Both the position numbers and the translations under genes were made by a program. A DNA stretch of 64,000 nucleotides from Clostridia bacterium (lineage in GTDB: Bacteria > Bacillota > Clostridia > Oscillospirales > CAG-272): contig JAFYMF010000044.1 in the NCBI GenBank assembly GCA_017556745.1, positions 3,784-67,783 of the forward strand. Direction: 5' to 3'. This document shows positions 26,775 to 35,892 of this stretch, in pieces. Under the pieces are notes generated by a model. The model had not been told where the DNA came from and searched no databases. It saw only the letters and a program-made list of their open reading frames with translations. Position 1 is the stretch's first letter, and each line of letters starts with the position of its first letter.

Positions 26775-27368
26775 ATGAATATATATGATATTTCTCAAGA
26801 TATATACGGATGCTCGGTGTATCCCGGAGATCCGGTACCTAAAAAAGAGGTGCTCTGTTCCATCGCTAACGGTGACGTATGTAATCTCACACAGTTTTCT
26901 ATGTGCGCCCACAACGGTACTCACTTAGACGCACCTTATCACTTTTTTGATAACGGCAAGAAGATAGACCAGCTTCCCCTCAAGCAAACCGTAGGTCTTG
27001 CATATCTGGCAGAAACAGACGTAGATCTTACGAAACACTCGGCAGAAAAGATTATTACTGCGGCAAGAGTTGCTTACCCGGGATGTGAGAAAAAAATTCT
27101 TATCAAGGGCAAAGCCGTTGTCACCGAAGAAGCGGCACAAGTCTTTGTCACCTCAGGTGTTGAGCTTGTAGGTGTTGAATCACAAACTGTCGGACCGTTT
27201 GATGCCCCAATGGAGGTACATAAAATACTTCTCAGTGCAGACGTTGTACTGCTGGAAGGTTTAAGACTTTCCGAGGTAAAGGAGGGACCGTACTTTCTCT
27301 CCGCCGCTCCTCTCTCCCTTGGAGACGGTGACGGTGCACCCACGAGAGCGTTTCTTATAGAAATATAA
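26775..27368 (+). CDS. Cyclase family metallohydrolase (KynB-like)
   Basis: YPGDP, HNGTHLDAPYHF, VHKILL, LLEGL, DGAPTRA. Confidence 0.88.
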   Translation: MNIYDISQDIYGCSVYPGDPVPKKEVLCSIANGDVCNLTQFSMCAHNGTHLDAPYHFFDNGKKIDQLPLKQTVGLAYLAETDVDLTKHSAEKIITAARVAYPGCEKKILIKGKAVVTEEAAQVFVTSGVELVGVESQTVGPFDAPMEVHKILLSADVVLLEGLRLSEVKEGPYFLSAAPLSLGDGDGAPTRAFLIEI

Positions 27369-27593
27369 TATAAAAAGACACCCGACCGGGTGTCTTTTTA
27401 TATTGGCTGGGATAGCCGGATTTGCGAACCGTGATTTTCGTTTTTTGTTTGCTTTTTTCTTCAGTTTCTGCTACGAAAATCTTACTCTGTGCTAACGCAC
27501 AGTGGCGATCCTGCATACTATAGACTATTCTAAACAATATAAAAAGACACCCGACCGGGTGTCTTTTTATATTGGCTGGGATAGCCGGATTTG
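27367..27593 (-). repeat. 58-bp direct repeat (tRNA-Gln 3' end + terminator), period 169 bp
   Basis: 27367-27424 identical to 27536-27593. Confidence 0.92.
27536..27573 (-). terminator. tRNA-Gln terminator (second copy at 27367-27404)
   Basis: AATATAAAAAGACACCCG-AC-CGGGTGTCTTTTTATATT hairpin. Confidence 0.85.
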
Positions 27594-27647
27594 AACCGAC
27601 GAATGCGAGAGTCAAAGTCTCGTGCCTTACCGCTTGGCGATATCCCA
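27573..27647 (-). tRNA. tRNA-Gln(TTG)
   Basis: TGGGATATCGCCAAGCGGTAAGGCACGAGACTTTGACTCTCGCATTCGTCGGTTCAAATCCGGCTATCCCAGCCA; full cloverleaf, encoded CCA. Confidence 0.97.
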
Positions 27648-27658
27648 TCGACCTATAT

Positions 27659-27687
27659 ATTTTATCACAATTACCGCAACATGTCAA
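27659..27687 (-). promoter_or_regulatory. sigmaA promoter for tRNA-Gln
   Basis: TTGACA-17-TAAAAT on the minus strand. Confidence 0.85.
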
Positions 27688-27722
27688 GAAAAAGAGTGTC
27701 GATAGCTTTTTTAATTTACTAC

Positions 27723-27751
27723 TTGAAAACAAGTTCTAAATGTGATATAAT
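27723..27751 (+). promoter_or_regulatory. sigmaA promoter for the repeat array and tRNA-Ser
   Basis: TTGAAA-17-TATAAT, 20 bp upstream of the first tRNA-like unit. Confidence 0.85.
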
Positions 27752-27771
27752 ACTTGAGTGCAAAGTAGCAC

Positions 27772-27995
27772 GCAGAGATATCGAAGCGGTCATAACATGA
27801 ATTGCCATTGACAATTCCGATGACTCGAAATCATCGTGCCGTCAGGCGCGACGGAGCTATGTCTGTGCACAAAAACTTAATACGCAGAGATATCGAAGTG
27901 GTCATAACATGAATTGCCATTGGCAATTCCGATGACTCGAAATCATCGTGCCGTCAGGCGCGACGGAGCTATGTCTGTGCACAAAAACTTAATAC
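27772..27995 (+). repeat. Two tandem 112-bp tRNA-Ser-like units
   Basis: Units start at 27772 and 27884 and differ at 2 positions; the first 25 nt match the tRNA-Ser 5' end (one mismatch in unit 1); each has a CTCGAAA loop. Confidence 0.95.
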
Positions 27996-28084
27996 GCAGA
28001 GATATCGAAGTGGTCATAACGGGGCTGACTCGAAATCAGTTTGCTGGCAACAGCACGAGGGTTCGAATCCCTCTCTCTGCGCCA
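27996..28084 (+). tRNA. tRNA-Ser(CGA)
   Basis: GCAGAGA/TCTCTGC acceptor, GCTGA-CTCGAAA-TCAGT anticodon arm, long variable arm, GAGGG-TTCGAAT-CCCTC, GCCA end. Confidence 0.96.
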
Positions 28085-28085
28085 G

Positions 28086-28121
28086 AAAGAGCCTAAAATG
28101 TTAAGTTTTAGGCTCTTTTTT
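28086..28121 (+). terminator. tRNA-Ser terminator
   Basis: AAAGAGCCTAAAA...TTTTAGGCTCTTT followed by a T run. Confidence 0.85.
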
Positions 28122-28174
28122 CGTTCTGGCACGAAAAAATGTGAAATTTGGAATTATGATTCCAACCAATCGTG

Positions 28175-29020
28175 TTAATCCTCTATTTTCTTGAACGCTT
28201 CGTAATTTGCTACTTCGCGTTCCATATGGTACACCGCATACTCAATCGTGTCGAAGTGGTATAGGTAGTCTTGCATCACGGTGTTGAATACCTTGGCAAC
28301 GATTGCTGGAGGATTTCTGAATGCCCCACAGCCGAACGCACCGAGGATCAGCACCTCATTTCCGTTGGCAGCTGATACCTCAAAGATTCTGCGGATTCGC
28401 TTTGTCAGCAGTTTTTCGAGATCTGCAGGCGTTATCTTTGCAGCCTTGTCTCCGGCGTGAGGATTCATAGAGTTGCTCGGACGTTCACGCAGATTCGGGG
28501 CCGCGCAGGTTAGAATATTCACGTTCCACCAATCCTCTTTGAGCAAGGGTTCGGGAAAGTTCGTGTCACTCTTGAACACGCACACATCCGGAGTATAAAT
28601 GCAGTCGTTGTTGTATAACGGATTGGCTGCTTTGCGATGCGATTTATAGAAAGCACTCCACATCGCATCGGTGTTCAGACACGGGTACAGCATCGTGCAT
28701 CGGCAAAGGCATTCCTCTTGTGCGGAAGAGCCGTTCACCACACCGCCGCCGGGATTGGTTGCCGAAGCAAAGTTCAGTACGCAGACCTTCTTGCCCTGCT
28801 TGGCATAGCTCTCGGCGGCTTCGAGAGAACGTTTGCCGCTGACTATAACTTTCGCTTTTTCGGATTTGTAAGCTTAAGGAATGATAATGTTATCGGTTTC
28901 GGCTATGAATGCTTGTGCTTGGATTTAATGTTGGACGGTGGTCATCAGAGCTGAGTCCGATGTATATTGCCATTCGGTATCGCGGAATATCTCCGCGTTT
29001 TTTGTTCTTCTGTCAGTCAT
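28175..29020 (-). pseudogene. TIGR02452/DUF2263 bacterial PARG-like macrodomain pseudogene
   Basis: One frame from MTDRRTKN with two in-frame TAA stops, then VLNFASATNPGGGVVNGSSAQEE and LILGAFGCGAFRNPP. Confidence 0.85.
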
Positions 29021-29083
29021 GTGATCACATCCTTTCTTTGTGGTAGCACACAAGATACCACAGAAATCCGGGAAAGTATAGAG

Positions 29084-29415
29084 TTATTTTACCTTTTTCT
29101 TGCGTGATTTTATTGCCTCATAGCTCGCATATACCAAACGTTCGAGCTGATCATCGGCAGCATCAGGCAGGCGCACCGAAATCCAATGGTACGTATTCAT
29201 GTGGTATGCTGGATATACACCGTACGTAGCATTGAATGAGCCGAACATTTCGAGCGGCAGCTTGAGATTGACTCTGTCGATCACCACCTTGTCGCTGTCT
29301 GCCGAACTTCCGGTGGGATACGCGCATCACGATGACGTACCATTTGCGATTGTTGCATGACGAAACACCGCCGTTTCGAAGTATTCCTCGAAGGGATAAT
29401 CGGCGGCAGTACCCT
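29084..29415 (-). pseudogene. MmcQ/YjbR-family DNA-binding protein remnant
   Basis: YPF..FETAVFRH / NRKWYVIVM / VNLKL..YPAYHMN..HWISV spread over three frames. Confidence 0.75.
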
Positions 29416-29892
29416 GATGTATGAACGTAATTGTTGCGCCAACGGGAATCTTGCACTTGGAGAAGGCAAACGGAGAAAGACGCTCGATGTGGTCTTTCTC
29501 AATCTCCTGCGCCAAATTTTCGCTCTTTTTCTCTTCAGCAGAGGGATCATACAGATGAAGCCTGTCTTTGCGGCCGCCGAGCACGGCAATTGTCTCAAGG
29601 ATAGAATAAGCCTGTTCGGGTGTCATCGCATAGAATTCACGAACGCGCTGTTTACCGTCCACATTGTCGATAGATCGCAGATTTGGATTGAGCTGGTCAA
29701 TCAGTGCATGGAGTTTCAAGTCCGTAAGGCGTTCCTCAACCTCGTATGTAGCGTAAATGCGGAAGGCAAAAGGAATACACTCACTGTTATTCAGTTGTTT
29801 CAACCGCGATTCCACGTTGTCAGCGTAGCCGATCTTGACATATTGTGGGAGGAGGGATTTGTAAGAATATAAATTACGCCAGCTTTATTCAT
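29416..29892 (-). pseudogene. GIY-YIG (T5orf172-like) nuclease remnant
   Basis: MNKAGVIYILTNPS, frameshift, then QYVKIGYADNVESRLKQLN..PFAF..REFY; C-terminus truncated. Confidence 0.8.
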
Positions 29893-29908
29893 AGAAACTC
29901 CTACTGTA

Positions 29909-30485
29909 TCAAGAATGTGGAATATTGTCTTTCGCTCTTGCCTCATAATATTCATTTGTCAATTCAGATCGCAAGAACGAGCCGTTCAAGAGCTTTATAA
30001 ACGCTTCTTTAGATTTTTTTGTATCCAATCGTATTGCAAGACCATCGTCACTATATTTGAAAGCGCCTTTAAGACCAGGATTTGTTTTTGTAAATTCCAC
30101 TATAACTTCTTTGGGAATATTATTTGCAAAAATAGGTGATGTCTTTTTCACTTTGGAGAGTTTTCTTGCAAAAGATACCTCTTCGGCACTATCTTTTAAT
30201 ACTTGAATATCTTCCAAAGGTTCGAGACTGTCTATTGATTCAATTGTGGTTGATGCCTCTCGAAATATCAGTTCATTAAAACCAAGATTTCGTTCCAGCG
30301 CCTTGACATCGGTAACAAATATCTCATCGCCAACACGGATGAGCTGAAAATCTCCGTTCAAGCGAAGGATATCATCGCTACTAATTTTTTCGAATCGTTC
30401 AGCACTCTTTTTGAGTCCTATGCAGACCAAGCAATAAATAAGAAACAAGAGATGCGCTTAATTGAATATACCGGAAATATTATCG
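29909..30485 (-). pseudogene. Kiwa KwaB (DUF4868)-like C-terminal fragment
   Basis: FEKI..DILRLNGDFQ, LERNLGF, FARKLSKV, FIKLLN.SFLRSELT..YY..AKD; no N-terminus, no kwaA. Confidence 0.65.
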
Positions 30486-30524
30486 CTGCCAATACCTCTT
30501 ACGATCAACAGATAACTTGAATGA

Positions 30525-31676
30525 TCACAGATTATTTATCCACTGAAAATTCTTTTCGTCCCGAACCCGTGTATTTCTCGGGCAGGTTTCAAGAATACGA
30601 ACTGCTTCTGTGAACTGCTTATTATCGCGAATCAGATCGTATATCGACTGTTTCATCTGATACAGGTAATCTTCCGGTGAGCCACACGCCCCCTGTCTGC
30701 CCATTTTCGATTCATCGTAAACCAAATGACTGACAAGATATGATGTATGTTCGGCATAGGGCGGGATTGATTCGTGCATTGCCGAAAATTCGGCGGTTTT
30801 CAGCCAGCATTTAGCCGATTTTTCGCCGTCGCCTTTCATCATGTATGTTTCCGCCATACGGGAGTACGATGCAGCCATATGCCATGCATAATCGAGATAA
30901 TCTCCATCCCGGAACAGACAGTTATAGATTGCAATCTGCATCTCATTCACGGCGATCCATGTGTCGTCATCACACTGCGGCATGCCTTTCGAATCTTCGA
31001 ACCATCTGCCGCACAGGTCAAGCACCTTTCTGTTGAACCACCAGAGCAGTTCCTGCATATTTTTCTGACGAAGTTCGATTCCTTTATCTGTGTCCGCAGG
31101 ATAGATGTCTTCCATCCACAGTTCCTGAGTGAAATTGAATCCGGATGGGATTTTCTTACGCATTTCTTCTCTCTCCTCAGGCTCGCAGACACAGCACAGG
31201 CTCTCGATAGCTCCATAACGATAGTCTTCCACTGTGCATCCTTCAAGAACCAGCTCAGCTACACGGCGGATTTCCGGCTTGCGCTCCTGCCAGTTCTCGT
31301 ACGTCACATCATACGACTGAAGTGCGGTTGTATAGAAATCCATCATTTTATAGGAATACGGATATCTTTTATAACCTTCTACCGCCATGGTAAGGGCTTT
31401 TGCTTCGTCTCCGAGACGTGCGGTCTCGCGGCAGTCAGCAATTAATTGGTCAATCATTGCATCGGTTTGGGTTTTATCATTCCCCAGAAGCTCATCTATG
31501 GTAACACCGAAATAATTCGCTATCACAGGTAAAGTATCAATATCGGGATAGGTTTCCGCGCGTTCCCATTTGGAAACGGTCTGCGGAGTAACACCCACGA
31601 ATTCTGCCAGTTTTTCCTGTGTGATGTCAGCGGTGCGGCGGAGCTTCTTGATATTTTCGCTGAAGTATTTTTTCAT
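30525..31676 (-). CDS. XRE-family HTH regulator with helical (TPR-like) C-terminus
   Basis: IKKLRR..ITQEKLAEFVGVTPQTVSKWE..YPDI..FGVTIDELLG. Confidence 0.85.
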   Translation of the reverse strand: MKKYFSENIKKLRRTADITQEKLAEFVGVTPQTVSKWERAETYPDIDTLPVIANYFGVTIDELLGNDKTQTDAMIDQLIADCRETARLGDEAKALTMAVEGYKRYPYSYKMMDFYTTALQSYDVTYENWQERKPEIRRVAELVLEGCTVEDYRYGAIESLCCVCEPEEREEMRKKIPSGFNFTQELWMEDIYPADTDKGIELRQKNMQELLWWFNRKVLDLCGRWFEDSKGMPQCDDDTWIAVNEMQIAIYNCLFRDGDYLDYAWHMAASYSRMAETYMMKGDGEKSAKCWLKTAEFSAMHESIPPYAEHTSYLVSHLVYDESKMGRQGACGSPEDYLYQMKQSIYDLIRDNKQFTEAVRILETCPRNTRVRDEKNFQWINNL

Positions 31677-31939
31677 TTTTTATCTCCGTGATATTTATTA
31701 CGGTACCGTTGTATTAAGTGTACATCATGATAAAGTGAAAATCAATAACGCGTTTGGCGGGGATTTTTCCCGTTCTTCGTTAGTTTTATAAGACTGTATG
31801 ATAATTGCATCATATCTCGTTTGCCATTCCGGGTACGAAGATAACACCCCACTGCCAATAACGGCGGTGAGGTGTTTGGATTTCCTATTCAGTTTCTGCT
31901 TTCCTGCATATTCTCACAAAACCCCCTCATCCCAGCGGC

Positions 31940-32488
31940 TTACAGTTTTTTCATCATCCAATCCGCGTCCGCATACGTACCGTCCGAATATCTCACATTG
32001 TCCGGAAAGGTACCGTATTTTTCAAACCCCAGACTTCTGTACAATGCGATCGCCCTTTTGTTATCCGAAATCACTTCCAGTTCCGCCTGTTCATATCCGG
32101 CTTCCTTCGCCGCTTCAAGAACTGCCTGCATCATTTTCCTGCCGATTCCGCAGCCGCAGTATTCCTGATACAGTGCAATGGCGATCCCGCAGCGATGGGC
32201 ATATCTTCTGTACGGTGCAATGCTCATCAGCGAACAGTTTCCGATGTGTTTCCCGTCAATGAAAGCGACAAGCATCAGTTCCCGTTCGTCCTCCGCTTTG
32301 CGTTCGATAAACGCTTTTTCCTGTTCGGGAGTTATGGTAATTTCGTCCGGTTCCCGGATCAGATACGGGGTTTCCGCCGATGTTATTCTGAGATATTCGA
32401 TCAAAGCGTCCGCATCCTCCGTTTCTGCTTTCCGCAGGAGAACTTCCCGCCCGAACTTATCTCTGAACTGTACCGATTCAAAATTCAT
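31940..32488 (-). CDS. GNAT acetyltransferase
   Basis: GIAIALYQEYCGCGIG, LEVISDNKRAIALYRSLGF. Confidence 0.9.
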   Translation of the reverse strand: MNFESVQFRDKFGREVLLRKAETEDADALIEYLRITSAETPYLIREPDEITITPEQEKAFIERKAEDERELMLVAFIDGKHIGNCSLMSIAPYRRYAHRCGIAIALYQEYCGCGIGRKMMQAVLEAAKEAGYEQAELEVISDNKRAIALYRSLGFEKYGTFPDNVRYSDGTYADADWMMKKL

Positions 32489-32744
32489 ATCTTGCTTTTT
32501 CCTTTCGTTTCAACCCAAAGTTCATTACAAATGTCCCGATCAGTGCCAGCGGAAGTGCGATGAACCTGTTGCGATAAACACGCTGACGGCATCGTATTTG
32601 GTGTCTCCTCCTGCCGGATGACTGATTTGTCGAAGTTTTGAACTATTATATACCAATCGCTGAAGAATGTCAATCATTGAAAACAGCCGGAGCAATTCCG
32701 TAATTCTGCAAGGTATATCTGTCAATTTAGGATGAATTACGGAT

Positions 32745-32766
32745 TTTATCAGTTATAACTGATAAA
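32745..32766. promoter_or_regulatory. 22-bp perfect palindrome, putative operator
   Basis: TTTATCAGTTATAACTGATAAA; partial repeat CAGTTATAA at 32790-32798; upstream of the AAA ATPase. Confidence 0.6.
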
Positions 32767-32844
32767 TTTACAATTCGATCATTGTATTTCAGTTATAAAT
32801 GGATTATACTATACTCAGCCACGAGAAAGGGGGACTAAAAAATT

Positions 32845-34059
32845 ATGATTAAACGCGAAATGTATATGAGCCGTATTCGTCCTTTCATCGGATCGGATCT
32901 TATAAAGGTCATGACCGGTATTCGCCGCTGCGGAAAGTCAGTTATGCTGGAACTGATCAAGCAGGAACTTACGGAATCCGGCATCAGCCCCGCTCAGTTT
33001 ATCTCCATCAATTTTGAGGATATGAACTATTCCCATCTGCAAACCGCTAAGGCACTGCATGATGAGATCACGAAGAGAGCTGCCGGCATAGAAGGCAAGG
33101 TATATCTGTTCTTCGATGAGATTCAGGAGGTCAGGGATTGGGAGAAATGTGTCAACTCCTTCCGTATTTCGCTGGACTGTGACATTTATATCACCGGTTC
33201 AAATGCCAAGCTGCTGTCCGGGGAGCTTGCAACCTATCTGGGGGGACGCTATGTCGAGTTTGTGATATACCCCTTTTCCTTTGCGGAGTTTATGAAGCTG
33301 TATCGCGGGGTTGCACCGGACGAGCCGGTTCAGAAATGTTTTCAGCAATACCTTTTATCCGGCGGTATGCCTTACCTTGCGAACATCCGATATGCAGATG
33401 CTCCGGCAAAGCAATACCTCCATGATCTCTTCAATTCCGTTCAGCTGAAGGATATTATGAAGCGAAACAAAATCAGAGATGTAGATTTGCTTGAGCGTAT
33501 AATCGCCTATGTTATGGCAAATGTGGGCAATACCTTCTCCGCAACCTCTCTTGCAAAGTTTCTGAAAAGTGAACAGCGTGCCGTAGCACCGGAGACTATC
33601 CTGAACTACATCAAATATTGCTGTGATGCCTATCTGTTCTATCAGGTGAAGCGTGAGGATTTGCAGGGCAAACAGATTCTTGCATCGAATGAGAAATATT
33701 ACATTGCGGATCACGGCATCCGGGAAGCTGTTTACGGAGGCAACACACGAGACATCAACCTTATTCTTGAGAATATCGTTTATCTGGAACTGATGCGCAG
33801 AGGTTATAAGGTTACTGTTGGCAAAACCGGAGACCTTGAGATTGACTTCGTATGCGAGAATCGGGGAGAGAAGCTGTATGTTCAGGTTGCTTATCTGCTG
33901 GCAGCGGAAGAAACAATTGCCCGTGAGTTTGGAGCGTATGACAGCATCCAGGATAACTTCCCCAAGTATGTCGTTTCTCTGGATGAGTTTGATATGAGCC
34001 GCAACGGCATCAAGCACCGGAACCTCCGTGATTTCCTCCTGATGGAGGAGTGGAACTGA
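32845..34059 (+). CDS. AAA_14 ATPase with DUF4143 domain
   Basis: TGIRRCGKS, INFED, FFDEIQ, ITGSNA, YIADHG, LENIVYLEL, EIDFV, YVQV. Confidence 0.9.
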   Translation: MIKREMYMSRIRPFIGSDLIKVMTGIRRCGKSVMLELIKQELTESGISPAQFISINFEDMNYSHLQTAKALHDEITKRAAGIEGKVYLFFDEIQEVRDWEKCVNSFRISLDCDIYITGSNAKLLSGELATYLGGRYVEFVIYPFSFAEFMKLYRGVAPDEPVQKCFQQYLLSGGMPYLANIRYADAPAKQYLHDLFNSVQLKDIMKRNKIRDVDLLERIIAYVMANVGNTFSATSLAKFLKSEQRAVAPETILNYIKYCCDAYLFYQVKREDLQGKQILASNEKYYIADHGIREAVYGGNTRDINLILENIVYLELMRRGYKVTVGKTGDLEIDFVCENRGEKLYVQVAYLLAAEETIAREFGAYDSIQDNFPKYVVSLDEFDMSRNGIKHRNLRDFLLMEEWN

Positions 34060-34330
34060 AGATATTCCAATAATGACATTCTAATAGAAGCAAAAGAAAT
34101 TTTAGACGCATTCAACACTCTAAAGCAAAACTGTTAATTTTCAGGAACAACAGGTTACAATCATGTGAACTGAAAAAGCGGATAGAGTAAAAACGCTGCA
34201 TTACGCACAACCCCTCCATCCCGCAGTTTTCCCGCAAATTCTCACAAACTGCGTACAATCCCGCAAAAATCCCCGAAAATCCGCGTTTTTCAGGGACGAT
34301 GCGGGACGAAACGGGACACCATGCCATTTG

Positions 34331-34386
34331 CTCGAAATGTCGTGTACAGAAATGCACCTAGGGTTCGAATCCCTCTCTCTGCGCCA
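34331..34386 (+). pseudogene. Orphan tRNA-Ser 3' half (att-like)
   Basis: CTCGAAA loop + variable-arm remnant + T arm + acceptor 3' strand + CCA; followed by AGACCGCAATT/AATTGCGGTCT hairpin. Confidence 0.85.
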
Positions 34387-35530: not shown

Positions 35531-35711
35531 TTATCTCAATGCTTTACTCATCGCGGCGCCGGTGTCTGCTTTGCTGACGGCATCGAGGTGGCTATAGATG
35601 TTGGCGGTGGTGCTCATATCGCTATGCCCGAGCCATTCCTGAATCTGCTTCATGGATACGCCCTTCTCCAGCAACGCCGAGGCACAGGAGCGACGTAGGT
35701 CGTGGGAACCT
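35531..35711 (-). pseudogene. Tyrosine integrase C-terminal fragment 1
   Basis: HDLRRSCAS.LL..GVSMKQIQEWLGHSD.STTANIYSH. Confidence 0.9.
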
Positions 35712-35892
35712 GTCTTTTTCAAATTATGCTTTTCAATTTGTTATTTCACTCATCAATAACATCCCCTGCTTTTAACAAGAGTCAAAATCAACCACAAGTT
35801 GTGCGAATTTTATTTCTGTTATCCAAACGCTATCTTTATAGTCGTTTTTTGATATGATATACTATACACAAGATGAAGAGGAGGTTGAATCT

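Follow-up and report, generated by a model that had tools for sequence, protein, structure and literature searches.

Several kinds of integration at transfer RNA (tRNA) genes have been described that come close to the locus studied here. In the account of Islander, a regenerated target gene and a displaced fragment of it mark the two ends of an island. Integration at the 5′ side of the target is known as well, but is considerably less frequent according to PMC6563490. Integrative mobilizable elements (IMEs) are reported in PMC5704250 to decay and to accrete in tandem at attachment (att) sites. For actinophages, PMC10865867 describes a tRNA-dependent integration in which a short common core lies in the tRNA gene, the gene is not rebuilt and a replacement tRNA is supplied. 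Here we compare with these systems a stretch of 64,000 nucleotides (nt) from a Clostridia bacterium of the order Oscillospirales (assembly GCA_017556745.1, contig JAFYMF010000044.1, positions 3,784 to 67,783 of the forward strand), called the window below, in which the back-to-back genes of tRNA-Gln(TTG) and tRNA-Ser(CGA) are each accompanied by partial copies of themselves. An earlier note on this DNA had reported hairpin-bearing cognate copies beside both genes, and these were confirmed as a 58-nt repeat with a decayed copy on the Gln side and two 112-nt units on the Ser side. On balance, the evidence favors reading the extra copies as relics of mobilizable islands that used a tyrosine integrase at a tRNA recombination hotspot, with considerable room left for the alternatives weighed below. 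The hairpins are local features of these relics and not copies of a transposed repeat family.

In the window ARAGORN called two tRNA genes and no others, tRNA-Gln(TTG) at 27573-27647 on the minus strand and tRNA-Ser(CGA) at 27996-28084 on the plus strand. The Rfam tRNA model matched the same two live genes only (61.5 and 54 bits, respectively) with E-values up to 10 allowed, and none of the extra copies was called by ARAGORN or, at this threshold, by the Rfam model. Between the two genes lie two strong promoter-like sites in divergent orientation, one serving tRNA-Gln (27659-27687, minus strand, 11/12 consensus matches) and the other upstream of the first Ser unit (27723-27751, plus strand, 11/12 matches with an extended TG). 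No further promoter-like site was detected between this first unit and the live tRNA-Ser.

The Ser copies are two tandem units of 112 nt, 98% alike, which the live gene continues in register (unit 1 at 27770-27881, unit 2 at 27882-27993, both on the plus strand). Each is a tRNA-Ser look-alike without a T arm. It opens with the first 25-27 nt of tRNA-Ser, and in place of the 5 nt following the D arm it carries hairpin A, GAATTGCC-N4-GGCAATTC (27799-27817 and 27911-27929). After this hairpin, 13 nt are identical to the anticodon stem-loop and lie within a perfect 6-bp inverted repeat, with the anticodon-loop cores at 27824-27830 and 27936-27942. Hairpin B (27838-27854 and 27950-27966) occupies the place of the long variable arm and is followed by a strand resembling the 3′ side of the acceptor stem. 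In a genome of the same genus, G001, the same front part and the same hairpin A were found, and past the anticodon loop its spacer is quite unlike the units of the window.

Read along the plus strand, the order of features is promoter, unit 1, unit 2, live tRNA-Ser, a 6.3-kb island, four TCCCGCA repeats, a 3′ half-tRNA and an integrase pseudogene. The last 27 nt of tRNA-Ser are repeated exactly at 34360-34386, where no match was expected in 100 shuffles. They are preceded by a diverged stretch of 21 nt, equal in length to that of the live gene, and by the anticodon-loop core at 34331. We therefore attribute the whole piece at 34330-34386 (plus strand) to a displaced 3′ half of tRNA-Ser that begins in the anticodon loop; examined as a possible att fragment, its match begins at the anticodon-loop core. 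The 88 nt ahead of this half, at 34219-34306, hold 4 of the 11 TCCCGCA copies of the window, three direct and one inverted, which we read as putative arm-type sites of an integrase. Accessory DNA and arm-type-like repeats thus separate the live tRNA-Ser from its displaced fragment, as in a genomic island. The island itself (28085-34329) is decayed and has no integrase gene; it contains a PARG fragment, a KwaB fragment and the genes of an HTH protein, a GNAT protein and an AAA_14/DUF4143 ATPase. Beyond the 3′ half lies a fragment of a tyrosine-integrase pseudogene with three stop codons (35582-35794, minus strand; G000:C44:39365-39577; 51.6 bits), so that a recombinase-less island between tRNA-Ser and its 3′ half is followed by an integrase remnant, the arrangement known from cis-mobilizable elements and accretion. 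As the earlier note had stated, no candidate enzyme is intact: no intact gene of a tyrosine recombinase, serine recombinase or Y1 transposase was found on the contig of the window. A comparison of the island with a plasmid database gave no match, and its profile of guanine-plus-cytosine content was uninformative. Within the island cargo, the KwaB fragment (Kiwa defence) is located at 29909-30448 and the AAA_14/DUF4143 ATPase gene at 32845-34059; the same gene pair is present in intact form beside a mobilizable element in the related genome G224 (L042:5382-8540).

The arrangement upstream of tRNA-Ser is not confined to the window. The earlier note had made its hypothesis depend on such copies occurring at other tRNA loci, and they do: 4 of the 33 tRNA genes of this genome have adjacent partial self-copies, and 5′ half-copies were found upstream of tRNA-Ser in relatives too, clearly in at least 14 of 40 genomes and partially in 2, the gene concerned in G003 being the TGA isoacceptor. 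The layout in relatives consists of the native promoter, a half-copy and a spacer of 50-190 nt, sometimes repeated, and then the live gene. In 12 of the 20 tabulated upstream copies the identity to the live gene of the same genome reaches positions 40-44, in the anticodon loop. The remaining eight comprise five that end at 25-28 (including the two of the window), two that end at 18, where a module is inserted, and one that was unalignable. The types of spacer cross the phylogeny, with three different types inside the genus of the window alone. Arrays in G034 and G274 combine different spacer types and are therefore not the product of simple duplication. One spacer type, present in 15 of 401 genomes of the order, has two motif blocks that recur upstream of the AAA_25 replication gene in mobilizable elements, and these elements carry genes for NikA or a relaxase, ParB, AAA_25 and an integrase.

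The neighborhood of the live genes points in the same direction. The live tRNA is immediately followed by a tyrosine integrase gene in four of the five assessable copy-bearing loci (G010, G005, G034 and G020, and not G016) and in none of the three loci without copies, in agreement with the earlier note's suggestion that a tyrosine enzyme might be implicated. A corresponding arrangement was found at tRNA-Leu(CAA) of G224, where a promoter, a half-copy, a spacer and the live gene are followed by an element with an intact integrase; here motifs are common to the spacer and to the gap between tRNA and integrase, that is, to both sides of the live gene. In G274, in G023 and in a scaffold from a phage database (L024), the anticodon stem of the live gene differs from the usual stem of the upstream copies.

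The most complete comparison is offered by G087. Its native tRNA-Ser(CGA) is intact and lacks an upstream copy, and another contig carries an element with genes for a serine recombinase, ParB, a relaxase and AAA_25. At the end of this element, non-tRNA DNA is followed first by 13 nt that match the anticodon stem-loop of the usual host gene, then by a spacer and finally by the element's own tRNA-Ser(CGA), which is divergent and has a changed anticodon stem compared with the native gene. Judged from its sequence, this arrangement has the layout of tRNA-dependent integration, in which the core is short, the target is not rebuilt and the element supplies a replacement tRNA. The layout of the window fits such an integration too, but the stems of its halves mismatch and no integrase gene remains.

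On the Gln side, an exact 58-nt direct repeat comprises the terminator hairpin and the final 21 nt of tRNA-Gln. Its proximal copy (27536-27593) is the terminator of tRNA-Gln with the last 21 nt of the gene, and its distal copy (27367-27424) joins a bidirectional terminator hairpin (27367-27404) to the same 21 nt. The 111 nt separating the repeats resemble, on the minus strand, a decayed tRNA-Gln. This copy, named V, extends over 27404-27516 (minus strand) as judged by sequence anatomy and predicted fold. It starts with a stretch resembling the 5′ acceptor and D stem (27503-27516), continues with hairpin 1, the palindrome CTGTGC-N4-GCACAG at the place of the D loop (27487-27502), and with hairpin 2, GATTTTCG-N33-CGAAAATC, whose 8-bp stem and 33-nt loop replace the anticodon arm (27433-27481), and ends with a T arm that has two extra bases and then the acceptor 3′ strand (27404-27432). 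The Gln copy of the earlier note is thus real, but one of the palindromes counted there is an intrinsic terminator, and the copy has two hairpins. Nor could the single process proposed for both genes be demonstrated, the Ser copies being 5′ pieces upstream of their gene and the Gln copy a whole decayed gene downstream.

An orthologous Gln copy was found in the same-genus genome G003 (L026), adjoining the same cyclase gene; compared with V, its acceptor-like 5′ bases are better kept and its 3′ end has diverged. Both versions are predicted to fold into a three-way junction, with z-scores of −3.2 for V and −3.0 for G003. Immediately 3′ of tRNA-Gln, each of the four readable species of the genus has a different sequence, and such a variable flank is typical of an insertion hotspot. 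The Gln copy and pieces of the Ser units were recovered with 0-3 differences on DNA contigs from three separate bovine/gut metagenome studies; these sequencing data are contigs only and give no copy numbers, strand or joints across the repeats. One metatranscriptome contig of 207 nt spans 27302-27507; it runs from the end of the cyclase gene through the terminator into the Gln copy, most of which it covers. With a depth of 2.35 and no record of the strand, this RNA-library contig is too weak to count and could be DNA carry-over. Arrays of small hairpins with 3- or 4-base loops also occur 3′ of tRNA-Gln(TTG) in L028 (G020), L031 (G028) and L026 (G003), separated by 8-mers such as TATGAAAT or TATGTAAT, and in G028 the terminator plus the array is repeated twice.

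The four tRNA genes with adjacent partial self-copies in this genome are Gln-TTG, Ser-CGA, Gln-CTG, which has nested 3′ copies, and Leu-CAA, and integrase fragments adjoin both the tRNA-Leu(CAA) repeats and the transfer-messenger RNA gene (tmRNA). tRNA-Leu(CAA) is followed by a 95-bp tandem array (C33:66309-66510, C36:1-105, C36:12464-12707 and C56:38622-38878), in which every unit combines the final 17 nt of the tRNA with the terminator and with a T-arm-like piece whose loop has about 9 extra bases. This array interrupts the assembly and flanks the 12.7-kb contig C36, which has an integrase fragment at 311-430. At tRNA-Gln(CTG) (C16:5572-5920), an 82-nt repeat of the tRNA 3′ end, the terminator and 20 nt recurs 200 bp downstream, together with an older degenerate 3′ fragment broken right after the T stem, giving nested scars of the T-loop type. 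The genome also contains two intact genes of large serine recombinases (C48:12255-12701 and C26:5646-6071, in reading frames of 545 and 581 amino acids), located about 1.3 kb from tRNA-Ser(GGA) and tRNA-Leu(TAG).

From the layout of the window and of related genomes we infer the following order of events. Elements would recombine in the anticodon loop of tRNA-Ser(CGA) and bring along their own complete tRNA-Ser, as in related genomes, so that the live tRNA-Ser of the window may itself derive from an element. The previous gene would be split, its front left stranded upstream and its back half displaced to the opposite end of the island. With each further event another front half would be added upstream, and back halves and old elements would move farther downstream; the order seen in the window fits this. 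The stranded Ser copy of the window would then have decayed, losing the T arm and gaining a hairpin, and would have been doubled by a recent local tandem duplication of 112 bp; the units are now probably transcribed as a leader of the live tRNA-Ser. On the Gln side, an older decayed copy of tRNA-Gln would lie 3′ of the live gene, at the flank that varies between species, and its last 58 nt may have been made identical to the live gene recently.

Several observations weigh against this origin of the copies from integrase islands. No intact integrase gene is present in the window and none at all in the island, the only trace being the fragment with three stops outside it. The 3′ half at 34330 and the Ser units have anticodon-stem strands that do not pair with each other. 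None of nine copy loci of the module type has an integrase gene within about 1.3 kb downstream, nor has G016, and loci can therefore keep or gain copy arrays with no resident element; many relatives indeed retain copies with no element nearby. A 3′ half at the far end was not found for the G224 element within 22 kb or for the G034 element within 7 kb. Searches of phage, plasmid and viral-contig collections revealed no free element with these spacers: the junction of type A gave no match in the viral contigs, the double motif of type C gave six, all in unrelated coding DNA, and the unit of type B retrieved only tRNA-Ser genes from the phage database, scaffold L024 being a further half-copy locus. 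In the window, the identity between unit and live gene halts at 25-27 and resumes for 13 nt, and the sequence after the loop is complementary to that before it. A Ser unit may therefore be a whole decayed tRNA gene and not a recombinant junction. Finally, the hairpin stems are fully conserved between species and their loops diverge. The Gln copies of this genome (G000) and G003 differ at 22 of 99 aligned columns and at none of the 28 stem positions (p ~2e-4), and hairpin A of the Ser units shows 4 changes over 24 positions between this genome and G001, none of them in the 16 stem positions (p ~0.007). Neutral scars would not be expected to conserve stems during decay. This conservation is one of two points that the relic origin leaves unexplained.

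The other is a structured module of 111 nt, found in 119 of the 401 genomes of the order, which sits within relic copies of several tRNAs. One copy is L005:1038-1148 in G020, and further copies were found in L050-L079 and at L046:16748-16859. Its fold comprises two covarying hairpin domains with 24 predicted pairs, 14 of which show compensatory changes over 28 copies. In tRNA-Ser copies the module interrupts the D loop, following GAAG(T)GG-like sites, and no clear target duplication accompanies the insertion. Remnants of tRNA-Met and tRNA-Ala also contain the module, as do tRNA-like repeats that neighbor a tRNA-Gly, and some of the copies form arrays with a period of 199 nt. One type of spacer exists both filled with the module and empty. 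No Rfam family matched it. With its covariance model the only match in this genome was a 60-nt relic near tRNA-Ser(GCT) (C34:3430-3489); in the window there was no match, and the module is not detectably related to the window hairpins. The insertion of hairpins into tRNA copies, as imagined in the earlier note, is realized in the relics of relatives by this discrete module. In G087 (L046:16712-16966), the live tRNA-Met is directly preceded by a 5′ copy of itself that the module splits immediately ahead of the anticodon loop, a pattern as at tRNA-Ser with a different tRNA.

The unchanged stems speak for an alternative that we regard as possible, if doubtful, namely that selection maintains the copies as structured RNAs or as single-stranded DNA elements derived from tRNA genes. 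The Ser units could then act as a self-folding leader of the precursor of tRNA-Ser that blocks mispairing of the 5′ half with the live tRNA or marks processing sites, and the Gln copy would be a trailer RNA with a three-way junction; both roles would be compatible with an origin as relics. In line with such selection, hairpins unrelated in sequence to those of the window occupy the equivalent places in two other genera (G006 and G013), the predicted folds of the copies are steadier than those of shuffled sequences (z-scores of −2.2 to −3.2), and a one-sided change between V and its G003 counterpart retains a pair in the closing helix. The only strong promoter precedes unit 1, and the units should therefore be co-transcribed with tRNA-Ser; the RNA-library contig at 27302-27507 would indicate transcription of the Gln copy, were it not for its low depth, missing strand and possible origin from carried-over DNA. 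Against selection as RNA, the region of the window and eight related loci matched no Rfam family other than tRNAs, the acceptor-like pairing of the Ser unit is lost in G006, the comparison covers two or three mutually related species, and the conserved inverted repeats could equally be protein-binding sites on DNA. Another explanation, which we consider unlikely, does without mobile elements: slippage or unequal crossing-over would have duplicated the genes locally, decay would have followed and template switching would have produced the palindromes. It accounts for the near identity of the two Ser units and their register with the gene, for the arrays with a 199-nt period and for the nine module-type loci with no integrase gene nearby. 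It leaves unexplained that copies in relatives stop in the anticodon loop, that spacer types cross the phylogeny and match the sequence of mobilizable elements, that integrase genes adjoin the live gene, and that the flank of tRNA-Gln varies in all four species of the genus.

Very improbable, finally, is the idea closest to the earlier note, in which an enzyme working in trans, of the HUH type or another, put small hairpin elements that resemble repetitive extragenic palindromes (REPs) or miniature IS200/IS605 elements into spare tRNA copies. The discrete module in relics of tRNA-Ser, tRNA-Met and tRNA-Ala and in the repeats by tRNA-Gly, the filled and empty state of one spacer type and the degenerate module piece near tRNA-Ser(GCT) in this genome would suit it. 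The hairpins of the window do not, since they are single-copy: BLAST of all hairpin pieces against the 2.43-Mb genome returned the copies themselves and one further match, 21 nt long, chance-like and situated in an unrelated leader (C58:26192). The genome thus lacks a multi-copy palindrome family, and an intact cognate Y1 (HUH) transposase was not found either, its only Y1_Tnp gene being a broken fragment with three stop codons (C19:2587-2826). REP-like sites moved by an HUH enzyme are accordingly not supported here, and a correlation with genes of REP-associated tyrosine transposases (RAYTs) or IS200-type enzymes, which the earlier note had proposed to test, was not significant for the module: over the 401 genomes, Y1_Tnp accompanied the module in 54 of 119 genomes and was present in 103 of the 282 without it (odds ratio 1.44, p 0.12, uncorrected for relatedness).

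A bolder extension of the relic origin, to which we lend limited credence, would be that the relics are active. Their stems may be selected to serve as insulated leader and trailer RNAs or as spare att sites that spare the working gene, and the protein-less 111-nt module may be colonising relics throughout the order. If true, this would amount to a tRNA-relic ecosystem joining integrase islands with replacement tRNAs and a new class of non-autonomous elements. For annotation, hairpin-bearing tRNA look-alikes that adjoin tRNA genes of gut or rumen Clostridia are best taken, in the first instance, for records of past integration, and not for new genes or REP systems. The integration mode in which an element brings its own tRNA, described in 2024 in mycobacteriophages, is suggested by our data to be used by small mobilizable elements of an unrelated phylum as well, and its repeated use appears to build up, ahead of the target, a stack of half-genes from which past events can be read. 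The conserved stems and the widespread module provide testable leads to small structured elements outside the libraries of RNA families.

Compared with the known systems, the locus shares only short palindromes in non-coding DNA with REP/RAYT systems and miniature IS200/IS605 elements, and differs from them in having neither a multi-copy family nor an intact Y1 gene here and no association across the order. The islands of tyrosine integrases, with their attL and attR ends, their anticodon-loop and T-loop classes and with Islander-type islands among them, are closer: a displaced 3′ half starting in the anticodon loop closes the island at 34330-34386, clustered short repeats adjoin it, an integrase remnant follows further on, and several tRNA loci are affected. 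Unlike in these islands, the Ser copies lie upstream and contain the 5′ part, the spacers measure merely 50-190 nt, and the hairpins have conserved stems. With cis-mobilizable elements and the accretion of IMEs and of integrative and conjugative elements (ICEs), the window has in common a recombinase-less island between att-like tRNA pieces and a second decayed element with an integrase fragment beyond it; the cases described in the sections seen of PMC5704250 are at the 3′ end of the target gene, and arrays of 5′ halves with spacers below 200 nt are not among them. In a literature search neither stacked 5′ half-copies with conserved hairpins nor the 111-nt module was found described, which is not proof of their absence. 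To the tRNA-dependent lysogeny of actinobacteriophages (Guerrero-Bustamante and Hatfull 2024, PMC10865867) the 13-nt core and own tRNA-Ser(CGA) of G087 correspond, and the order of half-copy, spacer, live gene and integrase recurs in the relatives. By contrast, the carriers here are not phages but small mobilizable elements of gut Clostridia that encode a relaxase, ParB and AAA_25; their replacement tRNA lies about 200 nt or less from the core, half-copies appear stacked in arrays, and in the window the enzyme is gone. Set beside these systems, the leftover copies are most likely a common kind of scar, in which the hairpins have been unusually well preserved.

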